From: Candidatus Micrarchaeia archaeon
GTDB lineage: Archaea; Micrarchaeota; Micrarchaeia; CABMEP01
Reading direction: 5' to 3'
Length of the DNA: 64,000 bases
NCBI GenBank assembly: GCA_038881595.1
Contig: JAVZPM010000002.1
Location: 59,254-123,253 of the forward strand
Shown: piece by piece, positions 2,997 through 63,115 of the stretch
Position numbering within the stretch: the stretch's first letter is position 1
Layout: each line of letters begins with the position of its first letter
Notes under the pieces: generated by a model
Told to the model about the DNA's origin: nothing
Database searches by the model: none
What the model saw: only the letters and a program-made list of their open reading frames with translations
Made by a program: the position numbers and the translations under genes

Positions 2997-3010
2997 CTTT
3001 TAATGTTTAA

Positions 3011-3083
3011 TAGCCCCGACCGGATTCGAACCGGTGTCTCGGGCTCCAAAGGCCCGCATACTTGACCGCTATACGACGGGGCT
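3011..3083 (-). tRNA. tRNA-Gln (anticodon UUG), no intron
   Basis: Reverse complement folds as a 73-nt cloverleaf: acceptor AGCCCCG/CGGGGCT, anticodon stem CGGGC/GCCCG, loop CTTTGGA, T-loop TTCGAAT; CCA not encoded. Confidence 0.85.
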
Positions 3084-3128
3084 ATACAATTATTTATAGC
3101 TAATCAAAATTTTAAATACTTGCTTATT

Positions 3129-3656
3129 TCACCAAGGTACACTTTTGAGCTTTAGTTTATATGCAATTATATTTGACAAATAATGAATTATTAAAGTTAT
3201 TATTGCCAATATTGATAGTATTATCAAATCAAATTCCTTTGGTAAGTATGGAGAAGCAAATAAAAGTGCAAAAACATAGAAGCTAAGCTGATCAAGAATT
3301 GGGACAGATTTTCCACTCTTTACATTTATTCTTCTTTTTATAAAGCTACCAACCGCATCTCCAGTCATTGTACCGACTGAAAGCAGAAATGCAACCAGGA
3401 CGTGGGTTTCAAATGTAGAATACATATTAAGGATGCCTAAAAACCAGGTAATTATTCCAATAATCGTACCAGTTAAAATTCCAATAAAGAATCCAGTCCA
3501 TGTTTTTCCTTTCCCCAATATTCTCCTGCTGTCATAAAACTTTACTCCATAATCCATCGGTGTTTTGCTTGTTCCAGTTTTGAATAAAACTGGTGCTGCG
3601 TTCGCAAAATATGCAGGAAGTATGAATATAATTGCCTTAATAATTAAATCAATCAT
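3129..3656 (-). CDS. carS: CDP-archaeol synthase (CarS family, DUF46)
   Basis: Motifs PAYFANAAPVL, GKTWTGF and GDAVGSFIKRR in a polytopic membrane protein; start chosen at the internal Met (MIDLIIKA) to avoid overlap with the divergent sppA. Confidence 0.7.
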   Translation of the reverse strand: MIDLIIKAIIFILPAYFANAAPVLFKTGTSKTPMDYGVKFYDSRRILGKGKTWTGFFIGILTGTIIGIITWFLGILNMYSTFETHVLVAFLLSVGTMTGDAVGSFIKRRINVKSGKSVPILDQLSFYVFALLFASPYLPKEFDLIILSILAIITLIIHYLSNIIAYKLKLKSVPW

Positions 3657-3717
3657 TTTTTCACTTATTAGCATTAATAGCATAAATATTTTTAAATATA
3701 CCAAACAATCTATTAAT

Positions 3718-4641
3718 ATGCGATCAACACAACACATAATAAAGCAAGATGGTGCAACCACTATCAGTGCTGGAACAATAATTCTTTATATAATTGCAAT
3801 ATTAGTTATTGCAATGTTCCTTCTCAATTTCTTATCAGTTGTAGGAGTTGGAGGGTGCGTTGGGGTAATAGAGGTAAATGGAGAGATTTCCACTTCTAAA
3901 GGATATGGATTAGTTTCTTCATCTGAAATTATTAGTTTGCTTAAGGAAGTAGAATCCAGGCCAGATATAAGAAGTGTTGTTTTAGTAATGAATACTCCTG
4001 GCGGTTCAGCAGTTGCTTCTAATGAAATTTATTTATATCTAAAAGGCATGAAGAAGCCAACTGTTACATATATAAGTGAAATGGCAACTTCCGGAGGATA
4101 TTTCATATCTCTTGGAACAGATTATATCTATTCAAATCCCTATGCAGTTACAGGGAGCATAGGTGCAAGAACTGGGTGGGTCATTGACATGTCAAGATGG
4201 CTAAATAATACAGGAATAAATATGAGTGTGATAAAAAGCGGAGAGATGAAAGATTCCGGTGATATTTATAGACCTATGACAGAAGAAGAGAAAAAAGTAT
4301 TTCAAGAAATAATTGATGAAATAGGAGGTTCTTTCCTCAATCTTACAATATCAGAAAGATCTAAGAATGCAAGATTTAGCCAGAATTCCATATCTTTAAT
4401 ATCTGACGCAAGGATATTTACAGGAAAACAAGCATTTGAAATTGGATTGGTTGATGAACTTGGAACAAGGCAAGATGCAATAAATAAGGCTGCAGCAATG
4501 GGAGGATTAGACCAGAGCCCGAGCATCTGCGTTCTTGAGACAAAGAAAGATTTCTTAAGTACTATGTTTAATGAGATGGGAAGAGGTATAGGTGAAACTT
4601 TAAGCAATAAGTTATCATTTAATAGTCTTCGTATACAATAA
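3718..4641 (+). CDS. sppA: Signal peptide peptidase SppA (S49 family)
   Basis: VLVMNTPGGSAVASNEIY...SEMATSGGYFISLGTDYIYSNPYAVTGSIGA is typical of SppA/ClpP-fold S49 peptidases; TM anchor after Met at 3718; TTTAAATATA box about 25 bp upstream. Confidence 0.75.
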   Translation: MRSTQHIIKQDGATTISAGTIILYIIAILVIAMFLLNFLSVVGVGGCVGVIEVNGEISTSKGYGLVSSSEIISLLKEVESRPDIRSVVLVMNTPGGSAVASNEIYLYLKGMKKPTVTYISEMATSGGYFISLGTDYIYSNPYAVTGSIGARTGWVIDMSRWLNNTGINMSVIKSGEMKDSGDIYRPMTEEEKKVFQEIIDEIGGSFLNLTISERSKNARFSQNSISLISDARIFTGKQAFEIGLVDELGTRQDAINKAAAMGGLDQSPSICVLETKKDFLSTMFNEMGRGIGETLSNKLSFNSLRIQ

Positions 4642-4695
4642 ATATCAATAAATATAAATAGCCTAGGATAAAAGGCAATCTAACCAAGTGAGAAA

Positions 4696-5268
4696 ATGGG
4701 AAAAAATAAGAAAAATGCATTTATATTCACAACAGATGCATTTCTTGCTCTCCCACTAGTTGTTTTGGCAGTGTCTACATTTATTGCATTTTCAGTTACT
4801 CTTCGAGATAATATTACTGTACAAGAATATGCCTACATAATTGCAAAAGATGCAATAAATGTTTTAATCGATTCAAACCCACAGCATATCGGGGGATCTG
4901 GAGATAATTCATTTGCTTATATAATTGCGCAGAATATTGTTGATTCAGATTTAAATAGCGCAAACAGTACTGCATCTGTTATCGATTCCATTGTTCCTTC
5001 TAATGCAGCGTATATACTTGAATATAAATCCGCTTCTGATAACCAATGGAAAGAGATAAGGATTTTAGACAGAGGGAACAAGATAGCGCAAAACAAATAT
5101 TCAATTCAGGTCTCAAGTACAAGGTTAATCGCAGATATCTCGCAACCAAGACTTAATCCAAGTGGCGACTGTCCAAGTGAAATAGTATGTTCTTTCCCAT
5201 CAATATCACAGTATACACCAGGTTCAACAGTTGGTCCACTACTACTCAGGATAAGGGTATTCATATAA
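4696..5268 (+). CDS. Hypothetical membrane-anchored extracellular protein (possible pilus-associated)
   Basis: Basic N-terminus followed by a hydrophobic helix (KKNAFIFTTDAFLALPLVVLAV); first gene of a co-directional cluster of pilin-like genes. Confidence 0.3.
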   Translation: MGKNKKNAFIFTTDAFLALPLVVLAVSTFIAFSVTLRDNITVQEYAYIIAKDAINVLIDSNPQHIGGSGDNSFAYIIAQNIVDSDLNSANSTASVIDSIVPSNAAYILEYKSASDNQWKEIRILDRGNKIAQNKYSIQVSSTRLIADISQPRLNPSGDCPSEIVCSFPSISQYTPGSTVGPLLLRIRVFI

Positions 5269-5296
5269 TAAATATATTCAAAGGATAAGTGTTTAT

Positions 5297-6715
5297 ATGT
5301 TAGGAAAAGAAAATTTCAAAACAAAAAAATCAAAAATGCAATATAGTAAGCAGAGAAAGGGATTTGTATTTACAATCCTAACCTTAGTTATAATAGTATT
5401 CATGATTATAGAACTTAACATATATTTCAGGACATACGAATTGAAACTTGCTAATGAGCCAACGAAATTAAGGCTTCAGGTAATACAGGATTTCATAAGA
5501 GCATATTCTCCAAACTATTTCAATGAAACTGCATATTCTTTCATTTATTCCTCTTTATATGAACTTAACAAAGATTCAATCCAATATCCACCATCCCAAT
5601 CAAGTTTAGCTGAATTAATTTGGAATATATCTTATTCAGGAAAGAGAACAGACAGCCGTACAGTACAGCTAATAGATCAGACTAAAACACTATCATCTTA
5701 TGATTCAAATCTATCTGCTCTTGCAAAGTCAATGAATATTGATTTGGTTGTTAATTATAAGGATTTCAACATCACACAAATAGATTATTGGACTGTACAG
5801 TACAATTTTACAATTGCAGTTTCAATAAATGATAAAGCATCCAGTACAAGTGTTAAGTTCACTTCTCCTATTTCATTAAACATCTCAATAATTGGATTTG
5901 AAGATCCTTGGCTCGCAAGAATGGGATTCAGAAATAAGAGTATAATACCTGTAGATCAGATTCAGATTGATCAGATAAGGCCTTCCCTTTTAATGAACGG
6001 GACAAGAGGAAGAGGATGGTTTTATGGCGAACCAATAATAGTGACAAGCTGTCCTTCTGCTGATTTTGAATTCAGTGATTCTTTCTTAGAGAATAAGACC
6101 AAGATAATGGTTACAGACAACACAGGAGTTGCTAGGGAATGCGGTCAGCTTTTTGGAGCAGTTATAGTAGTATCTGATCAAAACGCAAACACAAATCCAT
6201 TTGTTGGATTAGATGTCCCATTATTCATAAACTCTTCAGCAAAAATCTCAGATATTCCAAGGCAACCTATCTTAATAGTTTCAGATAACGATACAGTAAT
6301 AACAGATGACAGTTCAGGTCATTATCATTACATGCTTGACATAAACAATCTAAGAAGTGGAATAGAATGCGGAAGATATTTTGTAAGGCCATATAATAAT
6401 TATGGCTATCTAAGAAGGCTCACAAACAACGTTACTGGAGTTTTTGATGAATTTGGTATAGAAACCATTCTGTCAGGTACAACACAAGCAATCCCAACTT
6501 CGAGATCCTCTTATAGTTTTGTTGACAGAGAATACAACTCATCCATCCCCGGTAATCTAATTAAGGGTCTTCCAGGTTGCAGTAATCAATTGATATGCAA
6601 TTATACAAAGGATTATCATTCTTCTTCAATACCTTATCCGACACGATTAAGTACGGATGCAGCTAGATATTATTTAGGTTTATTTAACTCCTCAATGATT
6701 ATAAAAAGAGATTAG
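5297..6715 (+). CDS. Large pilin-like or pilus-associated secreted protein
   Basis: N-terminus RKG|FVFTILTLVIIVFMII resembles a class III signal peptide; large Ser/Thr/Asn-rich ectodomain; co-directional with the following pilin-like genes. Confidence 0.35.
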   Translation: MLGKENFKTKKSKMQYSKQRKGFVFTILTLVIIVFMIIELNIYFRTYELKLANEPTKLRLQVIQDFIRAYSPNYFNETAYSFIYSSLYELNKDSIQYPPSQSSLAELIWNISYSGKRTDSRTVQLIDQTKTLSSYDSNLSALAKSMNIDLVVNYKDFNITQIDYWTVQYNFTIAVSINDKASSTSVKFTSPISLNISIIGFEDPWLARMGFRNKSIIPVDQIQIDQIRPSLLMNGTRGRGWFYGEPIIVTSCPSADFEFSDSFLENKTKIMVTDNTGVARECGQLFGAVIVVSDQNANTNPFVGLDVPLFINSSAKISDIPRQPILIVSDNDTVITDDSSGHYHYMLDINNLRSGIECGRYFVRPYNNYGYLRRLTNNVTGVFDEFGIETILSGTTQAIPTSRSSYSFVDREYNSSIPGNLIKGLPGCSNQLICNYTKDYHSSSIPYPTRLSTDAARYYLGLFNSSMIIKRD

Positions 6716-6716
6716 G

Positions 6717-7169
6717 ATGATAACAATGGGAAATGAATTGTTGTTTAAAGGTCAAATAATGCTTGAAACTCTAATAATAGTCTCATTCCTCTTGCTTATC
6801 CTAATTCCTACTGTAATTTACATCTTGTCTGTTCTTTCCACCGAGTCATGGAAGACAGATGCAAATCAAGCATATTCAACATTGACAAAAATCGTTTCGA
6901 TATCTAACAAGCTAGCAATGCTAGGCAATGGTTCATCTTCTTATGAATCTATATTTCTTCCATCAAGCACTCAACGAATGAATGTATCAAGTGATGGAAG
7001 AGAAATCTTCATTACTTTAAAAGGACCTAAATCAGATGATTTGCAAGTTGTTGCTTTAAGTCCAGTCATTATAAGATTGAATTCAACTCAAGACTGGACC
7101 AATATTAAAGGAGCACAAACACTTATGTTTGTTGTTCAAGATGGAGAGGTAATAATATCAAAAACATAA
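6717..7169 (+). CDS. Archaeal type IV pilin-like protein
   Basis: N-terminus ...FKG|QIMLETLIIVSFLLLIL (G-Q, E at +5, hydrophobic helix). Confidence 0.5.
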   Translation: MITMGNELLFKGQIMLETLIIVSFLLLILIPTVIYILSVLSTESWKTDANQAYSTLTKIVSISNKLAMLGNGSSSYESIFLPSSTQRMNVSSDGREIFITLKGPKSDDLQVVALSPVIIRLNSTQDWTNIKGAQTLMFVVQDGEVIISKT

Positions 7170-7242
7170 TATATTCTAATAGAAAGATTAGTAATTTGAA
7201 TATCAGAATTAGCAATGTTTATTTTATTAATGGTGTGGTTTC

Positions 7243-7695
7243 ATGAAGAAAATTAATAATCTCGTAAAAAAAGGACAAGTTGCATTTGAATTCCTTCTCA
7301 TTTATAGCTTTTTCATATTTGTATTTCTTTCTTCGCTTTATATAATCTCTGGACAGGCAGTTCAACAACAAAGGTATGCAGAAGGATTGTATGCGAGAGA
7401 ATTTATTGTAACAATTGCAGATGAGATAAACGCAGCAGCTATGATTGAAGGCTACGAAAAGAATTTAAATATTCCAACTACAATGAGCAGCGTCCCATAT
7501 CAACTATATGTATATAAAGGTATGATTGGATTAAATTACAGCTCAATAACGAATATAGATCTACTATATCCTTTAGCAACAGATAAAGTATTTGTAAATG
7601 GAGTAGATACATCTAAGTACATTGGATATATTAATACAGCAAAAGGAAAGTTAAAAATAATAAGCTCACAGGGCATGGTGATCTTAAATGACTAA
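7243..7695 (+). CDS. Archaeal type IV pilin-like protein
   Basis: N-terminus MKKINNLVKKG|QVAFEFLLIYSFFIFVFL (class III signal peptide pattern). Confidence 0.5.
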   Translation: MKKINNLVKKGQVAFEFLLIYSFFIFVFLSSLYIISGQAVQQQRYAEGLYAREFIVTIADEINAAAMIEGYEKNLNIPTTMSSVPYQLYVYKGMIGLNYSSITNIDLLYPLATDKVFVNGVDTSKYIGYINTAKGKLKIISSQGMVILND

Positions 7696-8200
7696 AATTT
7701 TTAATTCAAATGAAAACAAAATAAAATACAGAACTAAAAAAGGCCAGTTTTTTTCGTATGATGCGATAGTAGCTGGAATACTTTTCATTCTTCTTTTGAC
7801 AATACTTTATAATTATTGGAATTCATTAAGAACAACAGTTTCAATAAGGATTGATGATTCATCAAGAATTGCATTAAGTGTTTCGAACATGCTTCTGACA
7901 CCTGGTTATCCTTTAAATTGGAATTCATCTAACTTTAATCAGATAGGATTAACAGAAAACTATAATACAATAAAACTTAATGAAGCAAAGGTTTCAAATC
8001 TCACTCTTATTTCTTATATAAATTATGAATTGATGAAAGAAAGGCTGGGGGTAGGACCTTATGAGATATATATTACAATCGGAGATGAAAGAATAGGCAA
8101 TGCTCCTTTAAATCCGACATCCAAGGTCACAATAACAAGGCCAGCCATATATAAGGATAGATTAGAAAATTTATCCGTAACTATTTGGAGTACAAAATGA
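7688..8200 (+). CDS. Archaeal type IV pilin-like protein
   Basis: N-terminus ...YRTKKG|QFFSYDAIVAGILFILLLTIL; overlaps the preceding gene by 8 bp, consistent with an operon. Confidence 0.5.
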   Translation: MTKIFNSNENKIKYRTKKGQFFSYDAIVAGILFILLLTILYNYWNSLRTTVSIRIDDSSRIALSVSNMLLTPGYPLNWNSSNFNQIGLTENYNTIKLNEAKVSNLTLISYINYELMKERLGVGPYEIYITIGDERIGNAPLNPTSKVTITRPAIYKDRLENLSVTIWSTK

Positions 8201-8226
8201 TTTTTTGTATTTAGACTTATTTGGAC

Positions 8227-8733
8227 TTACTTATCTTTTTCTTTATTTAAAAAGAATTTCATTCTGTCTATTAATCCTATATTTTCATTTTTTCTAGATT
8301 CTGCTTCGATTTCATCTTTGACATTTGTTTTTTGACTCGTTTCTTCTATTTTTACTTTATCTTCTTCGTTCTTTCTTTTATATTCAGAGTAAAACTTTTC
8401 AACTGTTCTCCTGTTGACATAATCGTGCTGCCTGAATCCTCCTCCGAATGATTTAGGTATGTGCAGCAACTCATGAATCAATACTTTCGTTCTTTCTTCT
8501 TCATTCATTTTGTCGAATCTCTCACTAATTACCTCTATAACATAAAAAGGATCTGTATTCATCCCAAGTTGCATCACTTTCGGTAGTCCATGACATCTAG
8601 CAATTACTCTTCTTGAGTTAGTTCCATAGCTTCTAAAACAAGCAATCCTCTCTATGTTTACATAGTTGATATTTAGTTTTTCAACTATGTCTTTTATCTT
8701 TTCTTCCAAGTCCCTTGCTCTTTCGTATTTCAT
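8227..8733 (-). CDS. Predicted Zn-dependent metallopeptidase (HExxH motif, SprT/DUF45-like)
   Basis: HELLHIPKSFGGGFRQH motif within a small soluble protein; exact family not resolved. Confidence 0.4.
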   Translation of the reverse strand: MKYERARDLEEKIKDIVEKLNINYVNIERIACFRSYGTNSRRVIARCHGLPKVMQLGMNTDPFYVIEVISERFDKMNEEERTKVLIHELLHIPKSFGGGFRQHDYVNRRTVEKFYSEYKRKNEEDKVKIEETSQKTNVKDEIEAESRKNENIGLIDRMKFFLNKEKDK

Positions 8734-36306: not shown

Positions 36307-36486
36307 GGGCCAGTAGCTCAGAGGTAGAGCGCTTCGTTCGCATAAACTTTCTTAGAAAGAGAGTTTGATCAAGGAATTTTCTAAGAAACTCTTTATCAAA
36401 TAGTTTCATCAAAATAAGTGATTGAACTTTCCTAACATGAAAGTAGTAAAGTTTCGGAAAACGAAGAGGTCGCGAGTTCGAATCTC
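36307..36486 (+). tRNA. tRNA-Ala (anticodon CGC) with an approximately 108-nt intron at the canonical 37/38 position
   Basis: Exon 1 36307-36342 (GGGCCAG...CTTCG TTCGCA), exon 2 36451-36486 (A CGAAG...CTGGTCC A); G3:U70 Ala identity pair; T-loop TTCGAAT. Confidence 0.8.
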
Positions 36487-36528
36487 GCCTGGTCCATAAT
36501 TAGTATATAATCAATTAGAGAGGTTAAC

Positions 36529-39510: not shown

Positions 39511-40605
39511 TTACCACATAACTTCTTCTATCATTTCATATGCCTTGTGTTCCTGTTTCTGTGGTTCAAGGTTTCCAAGCAATGATGTGGAGGTAACTCC
39601 GGTCATGATTGCAGTGACAACAACCTTGTCTCCAAGTTCTGGCATGAGTCTTGCTCCCCAGATGACATTTGCATTGTTGTCAAATGCTGCAGTTATTCCT
39701 TCACCAATCTTGGTTGCCTCACCCAATGTAAGATTTGGACCACCTGCTATGTGGATAAGCGCTCCCTTTGCACCTTCATAGCTCACATCAAGCAATGGGT
39801 GTTCTAATGTGCTCTTTATTGCATCCTCAACCTTGTTTGTTCCCTTTCCTTCTCCAACAGAGAGCATTGCAACTCCACCGTTGCCCATGATTGCTCTTAT
39901 GTCGGCAAAGTCAATGTTGATAAGGGATGGGGTCATTATAGTATCAGATATTCCCTTTATTGCTCTTGCAAGTATTTCATCTGCTACATTGAATGCCTCG
40001 TTCATAGGTAAGTTTGGCACGTACTGAACTAATCTGTTGTTGTCAATTACAACTACAGTGTCACATGTTTTTCTTAATTCTTCCAATCCCCATCTTGCCT
40101 TTTCTGTTCTTGCTCTCTCAAGAGAAAATGGGTATGTAACCATACCAACTACTATTGCACCCTCTCTCTTTGCAACCTCTGCAACAACTGGTGCAGCACC
40201 TGTACCTGTACCTCCTCCCATACCTGCTGTAATGAATACTAAATCTGCTCCACTTAATGCCTCTGCAAGCTTGTCTTTTGATGCCTCAGCTGCCTTTCTT
40301 GCAACCTCCGGATATCCTCCAGCACCAAGACCTCTTGTTATGGACTGACCAATTAAGAGTCTCTTGTGAGCCTCTGTTATCTTCAGGTGGTTGACATCAG
40401 TGTTAATTGCTATCGTGTCTGCGGTTTTTATTCCAGATCTCATTATTCTAGTGATGCTGTTGCATCCTCCTCCACCTACTCCTACTACAGTAATTCTGAT
40501 CTTGTCTGATCCAAGGTAATCCTTCTCCGGTGCCTTGGTCGCCTTAACTGTGGTTCCAGATGTAAACGAACTTAGGAAACTTTCCATTTCAACACCCTGC
40601 CTCAA
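39511..40605 (-). CDS. ftsZ: Cell division GTPase FtsZ (paralog A)
   Basis: Tubulin/FtsZ signature [24 protein letters not shown]. Confidence 0.95.
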
Positions 40606-40668: not shown

Positions 40669-41730
40669 TTAACCAATTATTTCAATGTCACCATATATTG
40701 GTGATTCTACTTTTTGCTCTTCAAGTGGTACTCCAACAACACTTGCACCCTTTACTCCAGTTACGATTGCAACTATTTCTATCTTGCCATCATATCCTGG
40801 AATGAGTCTTGCACCCCACTTGACGCTTGCCGTTGAATCCATTCTTTCAGTTATTATTTCTCCTGCCTTGATTGCATCTCCTAATGTCAGGTCGTTTCCA
40901 CCAGAGATGTGGATCAAAGCACCTTTTGCTCCTTCGAAGTCAACATCAAGCAATCTGTTCTTTAGAACTCCTTCTGCAGCTGCCTGAACCTTGTTTGTTC
41001 CTCTTCCTTCACCTACCGCAATGAAACCAACATCACCTTGAGACATAATTGCTCTTACATCTGCAAAGTCAATGTTGATTAATGAAGGTTGTGTTATCGT
41101 CCAGACAAGTCCACCAATTGCTCTTGCAAGTATCTCATCTGCAACTCCAAAAGCCTCATTCATTGGGAGATTTGGAACCAATTGAACCAGTCTGTTGTTG
41201 TCAATTATAATAACACTGTCTGCATGTTTTCTAAGCATCTGAATTCCTTCGTCTGCTTTGCTTCTTCTTGCCTTTTCAAGTGCGAATGGGTAGGTAACCA
41301 TAGCAACTACTATTGCACCTTGTTCTTTTGCAATTTCTGCAACAACAGGAGCACTTCCTGTACCTGTACCTCCTCCCATACCTGCACAGATAAAAACTAA
41401 TTGTGCATCTTTTAGTGCTCTTTCGATTAAAGGCTTGTCAATTTCTGCAGCCTTTCTCCCTACATCAACATATCCTCCAGCACCAAGACCTCTTGTTATA
41501 GATTTACCTATAAGAATCTTTTGAATCCTTTCATCTAATGTCAATAAGTGCTGATTATCTGTATTAATTGCAATCAGATCAGCACCCTTAACACCATATC
41601 TAAGAAGTCTCTGAAGGGTGTTGTTTCCTCCACCACCGCAGCCCACGACTGCGATCTTAATTCTTTCAACTGGACCAAGATTTGACTCAGCCTCAGTGTG
41701 TCCTGTAACAGATTTGATTAAGCTTTCCAT
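40669..41730 (-). CDS. ftsZ: Cell division GTPase FtsZ (paralog B)
   Basis: [25 protein letters not shown]; second FtsZ directly upstream of the first. Confidence 0.95.
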
Positions 41731-42322: not shown

Positions 42323-43468
42323 TTAGATTATTTCTTCAATATTACCATCTGCAGCTTTTTCGATTCTTTCCATTATCGCTCTTCCAATTCCAAATTCATA
42401 AACCCCTTCAATTAATATAACATCGAAATTATTTTTATCGGCATTTCTCAACTCTTTAAATAGACAACGTGCCATTTGAATATGATTTTCATATTCCGTA
42501 ACGCTTCCTAATTTAGAAAATTCTTTCTTCATTTTTTCAGGGATTGGTTCTGAGAATATTATCTTTACTTTTTTCTTTTTATTGGATAATTTTTCTGCAG
42601 CATATGCCATATTAATTATTGTTTTTATCCTTCCATCTTTTCTTCTTCCTATAAATACCTTTGCATCTGGAGAATAATTTTTATATTTCATACCTGGTGA
42701 AAGATGTTTTTCACAGTCTTTTTTACAGATTTCAATATTCTTTTTGAGTTCATTCTCTATTTGCTCTTTTGTTATATATCCTTCTCTTAAAATAGTATAG
42801 GGTTCAGATACCATATTAATTACAGTTGATTCAATACCTATCTTACATTGACCGCCATCTATAATTAATGGAACCTTTCCTTGAAGATCAGAAAATGCAT
42901 CCTTTGCATTGGTAGCACTTGGTTTTCCTGAAAGATTAGCAGAAGGAGCAGCTATAGGAAATCCTGATGTTTCGATTATGTCTAATGCAACAGAGTGATT
43001 TGGCATTCTTATTGCAATAGTATCTAATCCTGCAGTTGTTATCTCTGGTACTAAATTATTTTTCTTTAATATCAAAGTTAAAGGACCTGGCCAAAATTTA
43101 TTTATTAGTCTATTAGCATCTTCACTTATCTCCTCAACTAAGAATTTTAGCATTTCTACAGATGATATATGAACAATTAATGGATTGTCTTTAGGTCTAT
43201 TCTTAATTTTAAATATCTTAGAAACAGCACTAGAGTCAAATGCATTTGCACCTAATCCATATACAGTTTCAGTTGGAAATACTATAACTTCTCCAGAATT
43301 TAGTAACGAGGAAACTTCTTCGATTATTCTTTTATATTCAAGTGCATGTAGTTTTCTTACATCGATTATTTTAGTGTTGATAATTTGTTCTTCTTTTGGA
43401 TTGAGAATTTGCTTATCTTTATTTTTTCCTTTTATCTCTTTCTCTTTTTTATTTCTTTTCAAATCCAT
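42323..43468 (-). CDS. sua5: L-threonylcarbamoyladenylate synthase (Sua5/YrdC with C-terminal Sua5 domain)
   Basis: YrdC motifs VIVFPTETVYGLGANAF, PLIVHIS; about 380 aa including the Sua5 C-terminal domain. Confidence 0.9.
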   Translation of the reverse strand: MDLKRNKKEKEIKGKNKDKQILNPKEEQIINTKIIDVRKLHALEYKRIIEEVSSLLNSGEVIVFPTETVYGLGANAFDSSAVSKIFKIKNRPKDNPLIVHISSVEMLKFLVEEISEDANRLINKFWPGPLTLILKKNNLVPEITTAGLDTIAIRMPNHSVALDIIETSGFPIAAPSANLSGKPSATNAKDAFSDLQGKVPLIIDGGQCKIGIESTVINMVSEPYTILREGYITKEQIENELKKNIEICKKDCEKHLSPGMKYKNYSPDAKVFIGRRKDGRIKTIINMAYAAEKLSNKKKKVKIIFSEPIPEKMKKEFSKLGSVTEYENHIQMARCLFKELRNADKNNFDVILIEGVYEFGIGRAIMERIEKAADGNIEEII

Positions 43469-45676: not shown

Positions 45677-45787
45677 GGCCGCAGAGGGGAATCGAACCCC
45701 TGCTTGGAGGTTTCTGCATTTTTGATGAAACTTTCTTTTAGAAAGTTTCTCCACAGCCTCCCGTCCTACCATTAGACGACCGCGGCC
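45677..45787 (-). tRNA. tRNA-His (anticodon GUG) with an encoded G-1 and an approximately 38-nt intron in the anticodon loop
   Basis: Reverse complement: G-1 + GCCGCGG acceptor, anticodon stem GGAGG/CCTCC, loop CTGTGG|intron|A, T-arm AGGGG TTCGATT CCCCT, discriminator C. Confidence 0.75.
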
Positions 45788-49142: not shown

Positions 49143-50357
49143 ATGGCAAAGAGAATCAAACCTTCTGGCAAATCTAAATCAGTAGGTCCAAAGAGGCCTA
49201 GATCTTTAATTTCAAAACGCATTCCTGAGAGCAGGAGTGAAAGAAAAGATCTTGTTTTCATGGATTATGCATCATCTACACCAATACGCGAAGAAGTTTT
49301 AGAGGCAATGCAACCATATTTTAAATATAAGTTCGGAAATCCATCATCCCTTCATTCTTATGGCCGTGATGCAAAGTTGGCAATAGAACAATCAAAGGAA
49401 ATAATTGCAAAGACAATTAATGCATCACCAGATGAAATTGTTTTCACCTCAGGTTCAACAGAATCTTCAGTTCTTGCAATAAGAGGAGTAGCCAAAGCAA
49501 AGATCGCATATGGTAGTCATATATTATCTTCAGCAATAGAACACGATCCAGTTTTTTCAACATGTAAATCACTAGTTACAGAAGGTTATACCCTTTCAAG
49601 TCTTCTTGTAGATGTTGATGGAATGATAAGTATAGCGGATTTAAGATCAAAGATAACTCCAAAGACAATACTTGTGTCTATACAGCATTCAAACGGAGAG
49701 ATAGGAACAATTCAGCAGATAGAGGACGTAGGAAGAATAACTAAAGAAAAAAACGTGACTTTACATACCGATGCAACATTTTCTTATGGCTGGGTTCCAT
49801 TAGATGTAAAAAAGATGAATGTAGATCTAATGAGTTTCGATGCACACCACTCTTATGGTCCTAAGGGAATAGGTGCACTCTATGTAAAGAACGGAACTCC
49901 TATAAAGCCGATATTTCCAAATAGAGAGAACATTCTCCGCCCAGGTACACTAAGTGTTGCATCTATAGTAGGTTTTGCCGTTGCAGCAGAGTTAGCACAT
50001 AAGGAAATGAGTAAGACTCAAAAGAATCTAATTAAGCTTCAAAAGATGTTCATTGATTATGTAGAAGAAAACATAAAATTCGTGAAACTTAATGGTCATC
50101 TTACAAAAAGATTGCCAAATAATGTCAACTTTAGTTTCAGTGGGATAACCGGTACGGAACTTGTTAAGCAACTCGAGGAGAAAGGATTTATTACCTCAAC
50201 TTGCATAGATTGCAGAGTTCTTGAGGCGATAGGTGTCAAGGGAGAGAAATTTACTGGATCTGTAAGATTTACATTTGGAAAAGACACAACTCCTGAAGAA
50301 GTAAAAAGTTTGTCTATAACATTGAAGTCACTAGTGGAAACAGCGAGACAGGGCTAA
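49143..50357 (+). CDS. NifS/IscS-like class V aminotransferase-fold protein lacking the PLP-binding lysine
   Basis: Overall IscS-like (FGNPSSLHSYGR, TSGSTES, GSVRFTFG), but the SxHK site reads DAHHSYGPKG and the catalytic Cys loop is replaced by TSTCIDCRV. Confidence 0.7.
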   Translation: MAKRIKPSGKSKSVGPKRPRSLISKRIPESRSERKDLVFMDYASSTPIREEVLEAMQPYFKYKFGNPSSLHSYGRDAKLAIEQSKEIIAKTINASPDEIVFTSGSTESSVLAIRGVAKAKIAYGSHILSSAIEHDPVFSTCKSLVTEGYTLSSLLVDVDGMISIADLRSKITPKTILVSIQHSNGEIGTIQQIEDVGRITKEKNVTLHTDATFSYGWVPLDVKKMNVDLMSFDAHHSYGPKGIGALYVKNGTPIKPIFPNRENILRPGTLSVASIVGFAVAAELAHKEMSKTQKNLIKLQKMFIDYVEENIKFVKLNGHLTKRLPNNVNFSFSGITGTELVKQLEEKGFITSTCIDCRVLEAIGVKGEKFTGSVRFTFGKDTTPEEVKSLSITLKSLVETARQG

Positions 50358-52561: not shown

Positions 52562-53179
52562 TCATTCGCTTTCTTCATCTTTATCTCCTTTTCTTTTCTG
52601 ATATCTGCCTCTCTTCTCTATTTCATCCATTTGTCTTACTACTTTTTTCCATTCTTTAAATGTTTTGTACCCTTCTAAAAAATGTTTGAAATTTTTTCCT
52701 ATCGATCTTTTCATTAATAAAACATCTATTGCTCTCTCTTCTGGATCATTTGAAAATTCTGCTAAACCAAAATCTATAATATATGGTTCGTTTTTTACAA
52801 ACATTACATTCGCTGGGGTGAAGTCACCATGTGTTATTCCTATTGAATGAAGTTTAGATAGTATCTTTCCGACTTCTTTGTAATCCTTAGTAGAATTTTT
52901 TCTATCTTTCATTAATTTTCCTTCAAGCCTTTCAAGAATCAACTCGTATCTGCCGGCATGATATATTTTTGGAACATTTATACTACTTTTTAATGCATGA
53001 AGTATACATCTTGCTTCTGTTTTGTTCCTCATTTTTCTAAGTATTTCATCTAATTCGCTTATTCTGTATTCTTTTTTGTCTCTAACTTTTACAACAACAG
53101 GAAGACCGAATAATTCAGAGAAATAGACTTTTGCTTCTGCACCTCTGCTTTTGTAATTCTTTTGTTTACTTTGGCTCAC
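52562..53179 (-). CDS. bud32: Bud32/PRPK-like kinase (KEOPS subunit)
   Basis: Small atypical kinase: GAEAKVY, catalytic HGDFTPANVMF, IIDFGLA. Confidence 0.8.
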   Translation of the reverse strand: MSQSKQKNYKSRGAEAKVYFSELFGLPVVVKVRDKKEYRISELDEILRKMRNKTEARCILHALKSSINVPKIYHAGRYELILERLEGKLMKDRKNSTKDYKEVGKILSKLHSIGITHGDFTPANVMFVKNEPYIIDFGLAEFSNDPEERAIDVLLMKRSIGKNFKHFLEGYKTFKEWKKVVRQMDEIEKRGRYQKRKGDKDEESE

Positions 53180-53862
53180 TCTTCTCCCTTCTTTTCTTTC
53201 AGAACAGTCGGTCCTCTCTTTAAAAATTCACCCAAGCTCTTTGCTCCGCTTTTTGTTATGATGTAAGAACCTGTGAATACTATTGCTGCGACAAATGGAT
53301 TTAATCCGAGTGCCAATGCGCCTATGCTTCCTCCGCCTATCAAGGGTAAAGAGGGTGAAGTGAGCAACTCGGCTATTTTTTCACTTAGCGTAGGTGGCGT
53401 TTTAGTGAATGGATTTATTTCTATTAATGTCTTTCCATTCTTCATAATCCTTACAGCACCATCTTCTTCACTTGAGATTATAGAAATAGTTCCTGGCACT
53501 TCAGATATTCCAAGTGCAGCGCTATGTCTTGTGCCATGTCCTTTGTAATGTTTCGTTTTTTTAATTTGGGCTCCATATGCAATAAGATATCCTTCTTCGT
53601 CAATTATTATTGCACCATCAAGTTCAGCAAGCTTCTTTATTACTGGAAGTATTTTTTTATTGTTTATTTTAACCTTAGTCTTTTCAAGTATATCTGTATA
53701 TAACCATGAATAATATGGTTTAAGATTTCTATTAGTAATTATGAAGAACGAACCTTTTTTTTCCTGTCCAAATTCCATTGCTAGATCAATAACTAACTTA
53801 ACAACGTTCTTCTCTAAATCTATGTCATTAATTATCTTTTCTTTAGTTTTTTTATCTACCAT
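53176..53862 (-). CDS. dacZ: Diadenylate cyclase (DAC/DisA_N domain, DacZ-like)
   Basis: DAC motifs LDGAIIIDEEG (DGA) and GHGTRHSAALGISE (RHR-type); hydrophobic C-terminal region. Confidence 0.8.
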   Translation of the reverse strand: MVDKKTKEKIINDIDLEKNVVKLVIDLAMEFGQEKKGSFFIITNRNLKPYYSWLYTDILEKTKVKINNKKILPVIKKLAELDGAIIIDEEGYLIAYGAQIKKTKHYKGHGTRHSAALGISEVPGTISIISSEEDGAVRIMKNGKTLIEINPFTKTPPTLSEKIAELLTSPSLPLIGGGSIGALALGLNPFVAAIVFTGSYIITKSGAKSLGEFLKRGPTVLKEKKGEE

Positions 53863-53970
53863 TATTTCCCTCTAAAGCAATCTAATATCTATCGTATCAA
53901 ATTGGTCGTATATTATTAATTAGTAGACAAACGTATATAAACTTTAATACTATTTTTTAAAATTTGCAAG

Positions 53971-54969
53971 CTATTTCCATTTTACTAAAAATTCATCAGT
54001 TCTGAACTTAGGTTTTGGAATGATTTTGTTTGGAGATAAAAGGTATTTTCTTTGATTATTCTCATCTAATTTCGATATTAGATAACCGACATATGCAATC
54101 ATTCCACCATTATCTGCATTGAATTCATTTGGTGCTACTCCGAATTTACAGTTCCATTCTTTTGCCATTTCTGAAAGCATTTTTTGCAATCTTTTATTTT
54201 GCGCAACCCCTCCACAGATCGTTATTTCTTTTTTTCCAGTTAACGCTAGTGCTCTTTCTGTTATTTCACACAATGCTGCATACGATGTTTCTTGTAATGA
54301 GTAGCATATATCTTCTATTTTCTCTTTTCCTATTAGTTTTTCTGAATGTGTCAATATCCCGCTGAATGAAGCATCCATTCCTTTTACAGAATATGGCATT
54401 GGTATATACTTCTTTCCATTCAGGGCTTTTTCTTCCACATCTTTTGCATTTTTTAACCCTGCAGATCTTGCAAATGTATCTAACATATTTCCAATTCCAA
54501 TATCAAGTGTTTCTCCAAGAATATGATATTTATTTTCCTTCTTAATAAGTATCTGTGTATTTCCACCACTTACGTAAAGAACAAGAGGATCTTTAAATCC
54601 AGTGAAATATTTAGAGATCTCTATATGTGCAACACAGTGGTTAACACCTACAACAGGTTTATTGAATGAAATTGTAAACGTTCTTGCTGCTATAGATGAG
54701 ATTCTTAGACAAGGCCCTATTCCTGGTCCCTGAGAGAATGATATTAAATCAACATCTTGTAATTTAATTCCAGCTTTTTTAAGAGCCGTTTCCATCACTT
54801 GTTGGAATGCATCTGCATGGTGATCTGCTGTCTTTCTTGGATGGATTCCATACTCAAAAAGCATACTTTTTTCGTTTGCAATTATTCTTCCATTTTTCAC
54901 TATACCTACTCCTAGTGTATGTGCAGTACTTTCAATTCCTAGTACTACTTTTATTCTATTCAGCTTCAT
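53971..54969 (-). CDS. kae1: tRNA N6-adenosine threonylcarbamoyltransferase Kae1
   Basis: LGIESTAHTLGVGIV, FSQGPGIGPCLR and ASKH-fold motifs of Kae1/TsaD. Confidence 0.95.
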   Translation of the reverse strand: MKLNRIKVVLGIESTAHTLGVGIVKNGRIIANEKSMLFEYGIHPRKTADHHADAFQQVMETALKKAGIKLQDVDLISFSQGPGIGPCLRISSIAARTFTISFNKPVVGVNHCVAHIEISKYFTGFKDPLVLYVSGGNTQILIKKENKYHILGETLDIGIGNMLDTFARSAGLKNAKDVEEKALNGKKYIPMPYSVKGMDASFSGILTHSEKLIGKEKIEDICYSLQETSYAALCEITERALALTGKKEITICGGVAQNKRLQKMLSEMAKEWNCKFGVAPNEFNADNGGMIAYVGYLISKLDENNQRKYLLSPNKIIPKPKFRTDEFLVKWK

Positions 54970-57488: not shown

Positions 57489-57857
57489 ATGATACCTTGC
57501 GAATTCATGGTTACTGAACTTCTTCCTACAATAAGAAAGGAAACTGTGAAGTTTCTTATTTCAAAAAATTACTCTCAAAGAGAGGTTTCAAAAATGATAG
57601 GTATTTCAGAAGCGGCAGTTTCATTATACTTGAAAAAGAAAAGAGGATTGCATAAGAAGGAATTAGAAAAAATTATTACAGATTACATTCAAAAAAACTA
57701 TGATTTCAATAGAACATTCACTGAGAATGTTTGTAATCTTTGCAATGATTTTAGAAAATCCGGTTATTTCTGTAAAAGCCATAGAATAATATCAAAAATA
57801 CCTAAAGAAGAGTGCAAAGGTTGTTTCATAAATCATAAAGATGGTGAGATTAAATGA
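57489..57857 (+). CDS. HTH transcriptional regulator with C-terminal Cys cluster (putative Fe-S/Zn-binding)
   Basis: HTH-like segment (YSQREVSKMIGISEAAVSLYLKKKRG) and C-terminal CNLC...C...C..C; overlaps the iscS start by 4 bp. Confidence 0.45.
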   Translation: MIPCEFMVTELLPTIRKETVKFLISKNYSQREVSKMIGISEAAVSLYLKKKRGLHKKELEKIITDYIQKNYDFNRTFTENVCNLCNDFRKSGYFCKSHRIISKIPKEECKGCFINHKDGEIK

Positions 57858-59026
57858 AAAGAATATATCTTGATTATGCAGCCACTACTCCTGTAAGAGA
57901 TGAAGTTATTAAGGAAATGTTGCCTTATTTTAACAAGAATTTTGGAAATGCTTCTTCTCTTCATATGGATGGAAGAATTGCTGCAAATGCATTAAAAAAA
58001 GCAAGAGAAAAAATTGCAAATATAATAAATGTCTTACCGGAAGAGATAGTATTTACTTCAGGAGGGACGGAATCTGATAATCTTGCAATAAAAGGAATTG
58101 CTTATGCAAATAAAGACAAAGGAAATCATATAATAACTTCTTCAATTGAACATCATGCTGTACTAAATACGGTAAAGGAGTTAGAAAAAGAAGGCTTTAA
58201 AGTTACTTTTCTTCCCGTTAATAAATTCGGAGAAGTGAGTCCTAAAGATGTTGAGAATGCAATAACGGATAAGACAATATTAATTTCTATTATGCATGCA
58301 AATAATGAGATAGGTACAATCCAGCCTATAGATAAGATAGGTAAGGTAGCAAAGAAGTATAATATTCCTTTTCATGTAGATGCAGTTCAGAGTTTTTGCC
58401 ACATTCCAGTTGATGTAAAGAAAATGAATATCTCTCTTTTATCAGTCTCATCACACAAAATTGGGGGGCCAAAAGGAGTAGGAGCACTTTATGTCAGAAA
58501 AGATTTAAAATTGAAACCTCTGCTTACTGGCGGGCCGCATGAATTCAATAAAAGAGCAGGAACAGAAAATATTCCAGGAATTGTTGGCTTTGCAAAAGCA
58601 GCTGAAATATCATCAAATGAAATGGAGAAGGAAAGCAAAAGGTTGTCAAGGCTTAGAGACAAACTAATCAAATCAATTCTTTCAGAAGTTCCAGGATCAA
58701 GATTAAATGGACATCCTAAGAATAGGCTTCCAAACAATGTAAATTTTGGTTTTATTGGCGTAGAAGGAGAGGCATTACTTCTAATGCTTGATTCTTTAGG
58801 AATTTCAGCTTCAACAGGATCTGCATGTTCATCACATGATCTTTCACCTTCTCATGTATTACTTGCATTAGATCCCGATCCAGTTAAGGCGCATGGTTCT
58901 CTTAGATTAACATTAGGATATAAAACAAAAGAAGAAGAAATAGATAAAGTAATAAAGGTCATTCCTAAGATTGTTAATCAGATAAGAAAGATTACACCAA
59001 GAATAGAGGGGGTAACTACTTACTGA
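57854..59026 (+). CDS. iscS: Cysteine desulfurase (IscS/NifS)
   Basis: Canonical PLP site SSHKIGGPKG and catalytic loop STGSACSSHDLSPSHVL. Confidence 0.9.
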   Translation: MKRIYLDYAATTPVRDEVIKEMLPYFNKNFGNASSLHMDGRIAANALKKAREKIANIINVLPEEIVFTSGGTESDNLAIKGIAYANKDKGNHIITSSIEHHAVLNTVKELEKEGFKVTFLPVNKFGEVSPKDVENAITDKTILISIMHANNEIGTIQPIDKIGKVAKKYNIPFHVDAVQSFCHIPVDVKKMNISLLSVSSHKIGGPKGVGALYVRKDLKLKPLLTGGPHEFNKRAGTENIPGIVGFAKAAEISSNEMEKESKRLSRLRDKLIKSILSEVPGSRLNGHPKNRLPNNVNFGFIGVEGEALLLMLDSLGISASTGSACSSHDLSPSHVLLALDPDPVKAHGSLRLTLGYKTKEEEIDKVIKVIPKIVNQIRKITPRIEGVTTY

Positions 59027-59050: not shown

Positions 59051-59503
59051 ATGGTAAAAAATGAGCGTACAAAAAAGAACAAAAGCGCAGAGAAGACCAA
59101 AAGTCAGGAAATTACAAATTCATCTCTTTATACTCAAAAAGTAATGGAACATTTCATGAATCCGCATAATATGGGTGAGATAAAGGACGCAGATGCAATT
59201 GGAGAGGCAGGCAATGCAGTCTGCGGAGATGTTATGTATCTTTATCTGAAGATCAAGGATAATAGGATAAAAGACATAAAATTTAAGACACTGGGATGCG
59301 CTGCAGCTATAGCAACCAGTAGTATGGTGACGGATTTGGCGAAGGGAAAAACATTGGAGGAAGCGATTAAGATAACAAACAAAGAAGTTGCAGAAGAACT
59401 TGGTGGTCTTCCAGCTGTTAAAATGCATTGCTCTGTACTTGCACAGCAAGCATTAAAGAATGCAATTGAAAACTATTGGAAGAAACAGAAAAAGAAAGAA
59501 TAG
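59051..59503 (+). CDS. iscU: Fe-S cluster assembly scaffold IscU/NifU-like
   Basis: Three conserved Cys (AVCGDVMYL, LGCAAAIA, MHCSVLA) in the IscU pattern. Confidence 0.9.
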   Translation: MVKNERTKKNKSAEKTKSQEITNSSLYTQKVMEHFMNPHNMGEIKDADAIGEAGNAVCGDVMYLYLKIKDNRIKDIKFKTLGCAAAIATSSMVTDLAKGKTLEEAIKITNKEVAEELGGLPAVKMHCSVLAQQALKNAIENYWKKQKKKE

Positions 59504-60106: not shown

Positions 60107-60213
60107 GCCCCTGTAGCTCAGCTTGGATAGAGCGACTGTCAGACTTAACTTGTTGTTTTGTCTGGTCGAACCTCCTAAGCAGTAGGTCGAGGGTTCAAAT
60201 CCCTCCGGGGGCG
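60107..60213 (+). tRNA. tRNA, probably Arg (anticodon CCU), with a 32-nt intron at a non-canonical position (32/33)
   Basis: Acceptor GCCCCTG/CGGGGGC, D-arm GCTC...GAGC, anticodon stem ACTGT/GCAGT, T-arm GAGGG TTCAAAT CCCTC; a canonical loop (CTCCTAA) forms only if 60141-60172 is spliced out. Confidence 0.6.
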
Positions 60214-63003: not shown

Positions 63004-63115
63004 CCCACCGTAGCTCAATCTGGCAGAGCATCTCGCTGTAGTCCAGCCTGTCAGATCCTCTGACAGTCGTTTTGTAGAAACGAGAGGGTTGCTGGTTCAA
63101 ATCCGGCCGGTGGGA
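63004..63115 (+). tRNA. tRNA-Tyr (anticodon GUA) with an approximately 38-nt intron at 37/38
   Basis: Acceptor CCCACCG/CGGTGGG (C1:G72), anticodon stem TCTCG/CGAGA, loop CTGTAG|intron|A, T-arm GCTGG TTCAAAT CCGGC. Confidence 0.75.

Follow-up and report, generated by a model that had tools for sequence, protein, structure and literature searches.

A gene for a diadenylate cyclase (DAC) lies between kae1 and bud32, two genes of the KEOPS complex for the synthesis of tRNA N6-threonylcarbamoyladenosine (t6A), in a 64,000-nucleotide (nt) stretch of contig JAVZPM010000002.1 of a Candidatus Micrarchaeia archaeon (the window). This order is conserved throughout one clade of Micrarchaeota and was found at none of the homologous loci surveyed outside it. 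The middle gene probably encodes an active synthase of cyclic di-AMP (c-di-AMP) from a family specific to DPANN archaea, and the explanation that we favour, with moderate confidence, is co-expression by genomic hitch-hiking, with no demonstrated biochemical link between c-di-AMP and t6A. All three genes are located on the minus strand, and coordinates are positions in the window unless a surveyed locus (L or P number) is named.

53971..54969, minus strand: kae1, KEOPS N6-L-threonylcarbamoyladenine synthase, 332 aa (TIGR03722 arch_KAE1, PF00814)
53176..53862, minus strand: gene of a DPANN-type DAC, 228 aa (PF02457, AlphaFold, Foldseek)
52562..53179, minus strand: bud32, KEOPS kinase/ATPase, 205 aa (TIGR03724 arch_bud32)

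The initial annotation had recognised that kae1 and bud32 enclose a DAC-domain gene of the same strand, and profile searches bear this out with exact coordinates, all three open reading frames (ORFs) giving matches above cutoff. The products of kae1 and bud32 both pass equivalog-level models (TIGR03722 arch_KAE1, 424.3 bits with a cutoff of 375, and TIGR03724 arch_bud32, 172.9 bits with a cutoff of 125), and Kae1 also matches PF00814 (E=8.8e-70). The HCVAH metal-binding motif is present in the Kae1 translation, and that of Bud32 carries the HGDFTPAN catalytic loop and the DFG motif. The search of the middle product against the DisA_N profile, suggested in the same annotation, gave 60.1 bits (Pfam DAC, PF02457, cutoff 27), residues 31-144 aligning with profile positions 7 to 118/119.

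Conservation and origin of the gene order

The neighbourhoods of 85 loci were surveyed (27 DAC loci from a scan of species-representative genomes, 52 metagenomic loci and context look-ups), and Kae1, Bud32 and Sua5 were located in them by tblastn. Wherever the contig was long enough, a DAC with at least 56% identity to that of the window had kae1 upstream and bud32 downstream on the same strand; the sole exception is L040, where iscS-iscU stand before the DAC gene and bud32 still follows it. At DAC identities of 49% or less, neither kae1 nor bud32 was found within 5-8 kb. The 22 syntenic sequences form one exclusive clade of Micrarchaeota in a neighbour-joining tree of 62 distinct DACs, and the arrangement is present in none of the approximately 40 distinct outgroup members, so that it arose once and was kept in all sampled descendants. 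Because the lineage of the window was assembled from metagenomes, one might suspect a chance ORF or an error of assembly or binning. However, at least 25 contigs that stem independently from different samples and assemblers, some of them 88-327 kb long, show the same order, which refutes this reading, and the strong profile matches of all three ORFs also speak against it; its probability is negligible.

The closest relatives in the genome scan (95-96% DAC identity) are Micrarchaeia metagenome-assembled genomes (MAGs) from hot-spring samples. The identities of DAC, Kae1 and Bud32 range from 96, 93 and 88% in the closest relatives down to 63, 57 and 50% in divergent ones, with Kae1 dropping to about 56% and Bud32 to about 40-50% across the syntenic clade; of the three proteins it is always the DAC that is best conserved, and its family is under strong purifying selection. 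A wider order, HTH-cobO-NaPi-kae1-DAC-bud32-RNR-cysteine desulfurase, is shared by relatives with a DAC identity of about 79% or more, so that the persistence of the trio is in part a matter of descent. Selection on the trio could account for this persistence, as could operon inertia, synteny being generally good in the clade.

The initial annotation started from the view that kae1 and bud32 are normally adjacent or fused in archaea. A fused form (530 aa) and directly adjacent forms do occur in other archaea and in some sister Micrarchaeota, but within this phylum the rule holds poorly. Six sister-lineage Micrarchaeota kae1 loci share an upstream block eIF5A-S24e-S27ae-Rce1-like-kae1. Only two of the six have kae1 and bud32 directly adjacent (gaps of 1 and 65 bp); another has two genes of the opposite strand in between, and three (Anstonellales, Gugararchaeum and a Micrarchaeia MAG) have no bud32 within 4 kb. 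The interrupted sister locus (P0131) carries a TPD-domain gene and a gene for a 230-aa protein between kae1 and a Bud32-like kinase gene, an independent interruption. As the junction is permissive in the phylum, the argument that a gene placed in it must be functionally related is weakened. Compared with the archaeal kae1-bud32 pair or fusion (for example PRK09605), both genes of the window are intact, on the same strand and in canonical order, each matching its half of the fusion model, but an unrelated 687-bp gene and a 108-bp spacer separate them, and bud32 is coupled to the inserted gene rather than to kae1.

The eIF5A-S24e-S27ae-Rce1-like block was found neither in the window nor in any of the syntenic flanks, and a rearrangement that relocated kae1 may therefore be placed in the ancestor of the clade. 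In this ancestor, of Micrarchaeum type, the rearrangement would have taken kae1 out of the block and left the DAC gene between kae1 and bud32, the DAC gene and bud32 forming a two-gene unit since then. In the simplest account, the insertion into this compact housekeeping locus would have been neutral or of slight advantage, and descent together with operon inertia would have preserved it; the site should tolerate disruption, because the junction is often broken in sister lineages. A full-text literature search returned no paper joining Kae1 with an archaeal diadenylate cyclase or KEOPS with c-di-AMP, none on Micrarchaeum with c-di-AMP or Micrarchaeota with diadenylate, and none on Bud32 with Micrarchaeota; the clade-wide kae1-DAC-bud32 order is unreported.

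The diadenylate cyclase and its family

A word-index search retrieved 84 homologues of 129-262 aa, none of them fused to another domain; the few named ones belong to Micrarchaeota, 'archaeon' and Candidatus ainarchaeum. Besides the Micrarchaeia MAGs, loci of the genome scan are labelled Micrarchaeum, Iainarchaeum, Diapherotrites, Marsarchaeota or 'archaeon', so that the family is carried by Micrarchaeota, Iainarchaeota/Diapherotrites, Marsarchaeota-labelled and unclassified MAGs. Conservation of the following features was assessed in an alignment of 63 members:

53431..53772, minus strand: DAC catalytic domain, residues 31-144 (profile, phmmer, AlphaFold, Foldseek)
53611..53619, minus strand: DGA motif, D82 G83 A84; D82 and G83 invariant, A84 at least 90% conserved
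53521..53529, minus strand: R-H-S in place of the canonical RHR, R112 H113 S114; H113 invariant, R112 and S114 at least 90% conserved
53458..53472, minus strand: S-E-E-D-G motif, residues 131-135; S131, E132, E133 and D134 invariant; aligns with SEE(T/S)G of CdaA/DacM
53218..53349, minus strand: conserved C-terminal hydrophobic module, residues ~172-215, putative membrane association (hydropathy, conservation)

The protein begins with about 30 residues, followed by the DAC domain and a conserved hydrophobic segment of about 45 residues. The AlphaFold2 model built with the 63-sequence alignment has a pLDDT above 90 in the DAC core (residues ~18-150) and low confidence in the tail (residues 171-228). 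The top 50 Foldseek matches in the PDB are all diadenylate cyclases (DacM, CdaM, CdaA, DacA, CdaS) with a probability of 1.0, and phmmer against PDB sequences agrees, also giving DAC structures. The hydrophobic module shows a 19-residue Kyte-Doolittle peak (median 1.77) whose offset is the same in 60 of the 63 members, and its invariant or near-invariant residues are N188-P189, A192, F196-T-G-S199, T203, G206 and F213. No Pfam match was found for the C-terminal region, and in an exhaustive phmmer search of residues 158-228 against 1.84 billion representatives the module was present only in DAC-family proteins or their fragments; the other matches, multiple stretches in long repetitive proteins, were rejected as compositional. 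From its hydropathy and conserved residues we infer an element that associates with the membrane or re-enters it and has some specific role in addition to anchoring; it probably tethers the cyclase to the membrane.

The product scores far below the cutoff of every curated class model: 53.3 bits (cutoff 430) for DacZ (NF041371); 39.2 bits (188.8) for CdaA (TIGR00159), with no N-terminal hydrophobic segment; 28.5 and 27.7 bits (225 each) for the NCBIfam exception models of CdaS and CdaM (NF038327); and 15 bits (201) for DisA (NF010009), a class in which a linker and a C-terminal HhH DNA-binding domain follow the DAC domain, with no HhH match in the C-terminal region here. The product belongs to a DPANN-specific DAC family of about 220-250 aa, which by these scores and its architecture is separate from the curated classes. 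Galperin is said to have sorted DACs into 22 families in 2023, and the DAC-first architecture with the C-terminal module may already have a label in that scheme.

Among solved structures, the best match in both sequence and structure is CdaM/DacM of Mycoplasma (PDB 7dfx, 7dg0, 8ofj), likewise a small single-domain cyclase of a reduced genome. CdaM, however, has an N-terminal transmembrane (TM) helix and the canonical RHR, and its identity with the DAC of the window is only about 22-24%. CdaA/DacA of Firmicutes (PDB 4rv7, 6hvl, 6gyw, 8ofg) has the same DAC fold (Foldseek probability 1.0, TM-score to the target approximately 0.6-0.7) and shares the DGA, T-R-H and S-E-E active-site elements, as well as the membrane association that is probable here. 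Its three TM helices precede the DAC domain, whereas here the DAC domain comes first and the hydrophobic module last; CdaA carries RHR and is encoded in a cdaR/glmM operon, whereas RHS and a context without cdaR and glmM are found here. The characterised archaeal cyclase is DacZ (CdaZ) of Haloferax, Methanocaldococcus and Pyrococcus, and to our knowledge archaeal c-di-AMP signalling has been characterised only for such DacZ-type enzymes of Euryarchaeota. The present protein shares with DacZ an archaeal origin and the DAC domain, and of the NCBIfam models NF041371 matches its DAC core best, but the PK_C-like (DacZ_N) regulatory domain at the N-terminus of DacZ is absent, only model positions 123-267 being matched. 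In Haloferax, dacZ is co-transcribed with mscS2, and dacZ orthologues were reported in 2025 to be absent from DPANN (PMC12699388). The locus thus documents a distinct and well-conserved non-DacZ family of DACs in DPANN, with an unusual DAC-first architecture and a systematic change of RHR to RHS, and names a definite candidate for the enzyme with which ultra-small archaea that depend on a host could make c-di-AMP.

Both catalytic motifs had initially been described as intact. This is correct for DGA, but the second motif actually reads R112-H113-S114, in the context G-T-R-H-S-A-A-L-G, at a position where solved structures of CdaA and DacM have RHR. Residues D82, G83, G110, T111, H113 and S131-E-E-D134 are invariant in the alignment, and Ser114, being at least 90% conserved across the 63 members, is a hallmark of the family rather than a sporadic mutation. 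The third position of the motif also differs in three distant DACs, which keep D-G-A, R-H and SEEDG:

L025 4968-5588; L026 4677-5348; L027 4716-5321: distant DACs with a variant third RHR residue, namely Ala in L025 (archaeal MAG), Leu in L026 (Saccharibacteria bacterium) and His in L027 (Woesearchaeote)

The DAC of L025 also carries the C-terminal module. The strictness of the RHR motif may be lower than usually stated, as L025, L026 and L027 illustrate. Because the third position varies to A, H and L in other DACs of DPANN and of the candidate phyla radiation, Ser114 is unlikely to signal inactivation; the position seems to be permissive, and the enzyme with RHS is probably active as a cyclase. 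It might be supposed instead that, with the exchange of R for S, the DAC fold came to bind nucleotides or to serve a structural purpose, perhaps in an accessory KEOPS subunit particular to the lineage or in a protein that holds Bud32 at the membrane. This would agree with the near invariance of RHS in place of RHR, with the low scores in all curated class models and with the failure to recognise a gene for Cgi121 or Pcc1 in the vicinity of the locus. It would also agree with the RHR-to-AAA triple mutation that abolishes ATP binding and activity of Mycobacterium tuberculosis DacA (PMC3328451). That mutant, however, lost R and H as well and is therefore silent on the third residue alone, and work on CdaA handles the RHR motif as one whole (PMC8573169). 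The other catalytic elements (D-G-A, G-T-R-H, S-E-E-D) are invariant or nearly so, other DAC lineages have A, H or L at the third position with the rest of the site kept, and the fold matches that of active cyclases. Moreover, the family is widespread in DPANN with no linkage to kae1 or bud32, often beside genes typical of second-messenger signalling or ion homeostasis, such as those for RelA/SpoT or a Na/H exchanger. A protein that is not a cyclase thus seems very improbable, and the locus is a natural experiment on whether RHR can do without its second Arg.

Junction, spacer and expression of the locus

The following elements were noted around the DAC gene, which is preceded by a spacer and overlaps bud32 at its end:

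53863..53970, minus strand: kae1-to-DAC spacer, 108 bp, 23% GC, candidate internal promoter region (cross-locus spacer comparison)
53934..53948, minus strand: element resembling a TFB recognition element (BRE) and TATA box, ATTAAAG-TTTATATA, 79 nt upstream of the DAC start, hypothetical promoter (recurrence in diverged spacers)
53868..53872, minus strand: Shine-Dalgarno-like GAGGG upstream of the DAC start (recurs across syntenic loci)
53184..53188, minus strand: Shine-Dalgarno-like GGGAG for bud32 within the last DAC codons (conserved-type purine-rich element)
53176..53179, minus strand: GTGA, the bud32 GTG start overlapping the DAC TGA stop, in the sequence ...aagGGGAGaagaGTGAgcc...

The 4-bp overlap noticed in the initial annotation is real: GTG is the only in-frame start upstream of residue 13, where the alignment with the Bud32 model begins, and with no other start available the overlap is well founded. 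An overlap of 4-11 bp or a gap of at most 9 bp is found in the window and in L001-L008, L028, L037, L038, L042, L053 and L077, and at these overlapping or abutting junctions a Shine-Dalgarno-like GGGAG, GGAGG or AAGGA stands 5-9 nt before the bud32 start, in the last DAC codons. The gap is 16-43 bp in L036, L040, L041, L043 and L044, and 70-105 bp in L035, L039 and L046. This anatomy, with the overlap and the embedded element, and the conservation of the junction type in the 22-sequence clade give substance to the translational coupling that had been proposed; the coupling of DAC and bud32 itself is predicted from the sequence. Ribosomes ending the DAC gene would reinitiate at, or be recruited to, the Shine-Dalgarno-like element and the overlapping GTG. 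If so, the locus is a clear example, found throughout the clade, of how the translational coupling of a KEOPS subunit can be taken over by a gene unrelated to it.

Upstream of the DAC gene, the spacer measures approximately 105-145 bp in most lineages (extremes 79-188 bp), and 12-42 bp in L007, L038 and L008. Elements of (A/G)GGTG type are present 6-9 nt before the DAC start in most syntenic loci, and most long spacers have an A-rich stretch with TTTATATA, TTTAAATA or TTTATAAA at -48 to -103. This TATA-like recurrence was seen in L001, L003, L004, L005, L035, L036, L028, L077 and L042. Within the window, the TATA 8-mer is only about 2.5-fold enriched in intergenic DNA, with only three matches within 150 nt upstream of same-strand starts, so that it does not mark gene upstream regions in general, and for this reason the internal promoter is treated as hypothetical, its main support being the recurrence across species. 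A scan for sigma-70 promoters and intrinsic terminators was discarded, since such signals do not apply to archaea and the result did not surpass that with shuffled sequences.

The initial annotation had suggested co-expression of the cyclase with the t6A machinery. For bud32 the anatomy of the junction makes this probable. For kae1 it is uncertain, since most spacers are 105-145 bp long with a BRE/TATA-like element and L040 has no kae1 upstream; the stable unit appears to be DAC-bud32, and kae1 may or may not share its transcript. The pair is probably driven by a promoter in the kae1-DAC spacer, perhaps with additional read-through from kae1, and the consequence would be a constitutive expression of the cyclase at a housekeeping level together with bud32.

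Genomic surroundings and the question of a link with t6A

Outside the syntenic clade, genes of the same DAC family were found in the following contexts:

9 loci: divergent Na/H exchanger gene, with a small membrane protein gene downstream
L017 (Iainarchaeum MAG): RelA_SpoT+TGS gene (3544-4944) directly upstream of the DAC gene (5001-5627), same strand
L023, L024, L082 (Marsarchaeota- and Micrarchaeota-labelled MAGs): gene of an Obg-like GTPase with TGS (YGR210-like) directly upstream, same strand
L015 (3724-4863), L055: NreA gene directly upstream
L009, L030: Mre11-Rad50 genes directly upstream, HerA-like gene convergent; in L030 Metallophos/Mre11-like 1475-2632, Rad50 2607-4970, DAC 5001-5696, DUF87/HerA-like 5679-7127
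L054, L064, L065, L073, L075, L081: small membrane protein genes upstream and/or ornithine/arginine decarboxylase gene downstream

The RelA/SpoT and Obg contexts may be a clustering of nucleotide-messenger genes, and the DNA-repair neighbours, met in two unrelated DPANN lineages, recall the DNA-integrity link of bacterial DisA, although these DACs have no HhH domain. Such heterogeneity is the pattern expected for a stand-alone signalling enzyme with no fixed partner. As there are at least five unrelated contexts in other DPANN, no functional tie to t6A is shown. Cation exchange, (p)ppGpp metabolism and DNA repair are known themes of c-di-AMP in bacteria and Haloferax (PMC10249747, PMC12699388), and neighbours echoing them support a bona fide signalling cyclase.

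One further gene of the t6A pathway is located in the window and is given as context only:

42323..43468, minus strand: sua5, TC-AMP synthase, first step of t6A synthesis, about 10 kb from the trio (PF01300 E=2.2e-64, PF03481)

Several points weigh against hitch-hiking as the whole explanation. The DAC-bud32 overlap is not simply the norm of the genome, since in a crude gene call of the window only five of 39 same-strand junctions overlap (13%) and the median gap is about 45 bp. The DAC-bud32 junction is kept in every sampled lineage, including L040 with no kae1 upstream, and below about 79% DAC identity the trio outlives its flanks, with NaPi, RNR and cobO gone or displaced; this persistence exceeds what a purely neutral insertion strictly needs. 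In two unrelated, non-syntenic types of arrangement out of about 12, a distance of 3-4 kb separates sua5 from the DAC gene, a hint that DAC and t6A genes may be recurrent neighbours; this signal is post hoc and borderline. No c-di-AMP receptor or phosphodiesterase domain (RCK_C, CBS, DHH) was found in about 45 of the 63 window ORFs, those outside approximately 22.8-39.4 kb, and the cyclase activity of an RHS-type DAC is predicted from the sequence.

These points lead to the question of whether c-di-AMP signalling is functionally coupled to t6A synthesis and KEOPS, the cyclase and Bud32 being made in fixed proportion and interacting with or regulating each other. For example, the cyclase might be under the control of the ATPase/kinase Bud32. 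Alternatively, c-di-AMP might adjust the activity of KEOPS or Sua5, and tRNA modification and the capacity for translation would then follow the ionic or osmotic status of the cell. The tight or overlapping DAC-bud32 junction with its embedded Shine-Dalgarno-like element, conserved in 22 distinct lineages and kept in L040, the survival of the trio beyond its flanking synteny, and the presence of sua5 within 3-4 kb in two independent arrangement types and at 10 kb in the window are all in line with such coupling, and DAC, Sua5 and Kae1/Bud32 all use ATP or adenylates, as is established biochemically. However, the linkage with kae1 and bud32 arose once and is absent from other lineages with the same DAC family, no DAC is fused to Kae1 or Bud32 among the 84 homologues, the C-terminal module is equally conserved in members not linked to KEOPS, and the literature reports no connection between KEOPS and c-di-AMP. 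The sua5 gene is upstream on the same strand in L009 and L030 and downstream on the opposite strand in L011, L014, L021, L022 and their duplicates; standing several genes away, and on the opposite strand in one type, it is not in an operon with the DAC gene. The rough probability of its proximity, calculated post hoc for genomes of about 0.9 Mb, is approximately 0.01 if Sua5 alone is counted and 0.05-0.1 for any t6A gene. Functional coupling is therefore considered unlikely, and somewhat less likely still is its more specific form, in which the cyclase of Micrarchaeum-type archaea, through c-di-AMP synthesis or as a membrane-tethered DAC protein, would be a t6A partner stoichiometrically coupled to Bud32 and the closeness of sua5 in other DPANN lineages would reflect the same link. 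If true, coupling would be the first link of a cyclic dinucleotide messenger to the universal t6A pathway, which on present evidence is only a possibility; hitch-hiking of an otherwise unrelated signalling gene remains the preferred explanation.

Iron-sulphur cluster assembly genes recur near the trio: iscS-iscU lie beside it in L028, and in L040 they stand immediately before the DAC gene. The window contains two class-V aminotransferase/cysteine desulfurase genes (49143-50357 and 57854-59026, plus strand), the second of which is followed by NifU_N/IscU (59051-59503, plus strand). Upstream of kae1 in L028, two genes (2963-3433 and 3488-3919) encode paralogous zinc-ribbon proteins with a C-terminal TM segment, the second overlapping the kae1 start by 4 bp. 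These ORFs upstream of kae1, of 143 and 156 aa, were considered as Cgi121 or Pcc1 and rejected, because the zinc-ribbon and TM proteins that they encode are specific to the lineage and lack a counterpart in the window.

In keeping with a genome fragment of Micrarchaeota (DPANN), to which its closest DAC relatives also point, the window has a GC content of 31%, intron-containing tRNA genes and archaeal core genes, including the RNA polymerase operon, EF-2, fibrillarin and two FtsZ paralogues; the latter, with Tubulin and FtsZ_C domains, are arranged in tandem (39511-40605 and 40669-41730, minus strand). An ORF at 8227-8733 (minus strand) matches PF18894, 'putative phage metallopeptidase' (E=4.6e-26), and adjoins five ORFs with no Pfam match at 4696-8200; this region (4696-8733) may be a small mobile or viral remnant. 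Six tRNA matches were obtained with Rfam, four of which span 107-190 nt (36307-36496, 45677-45786, 60107-60213 and 63004-63115), implying intron-containing tRNA genes, one of them with an intron of roughly 115 nt. Because of these introns ARAGORN in default mode reported a single tRNA, the intron-less tRNA-Gln at 3010-3084.

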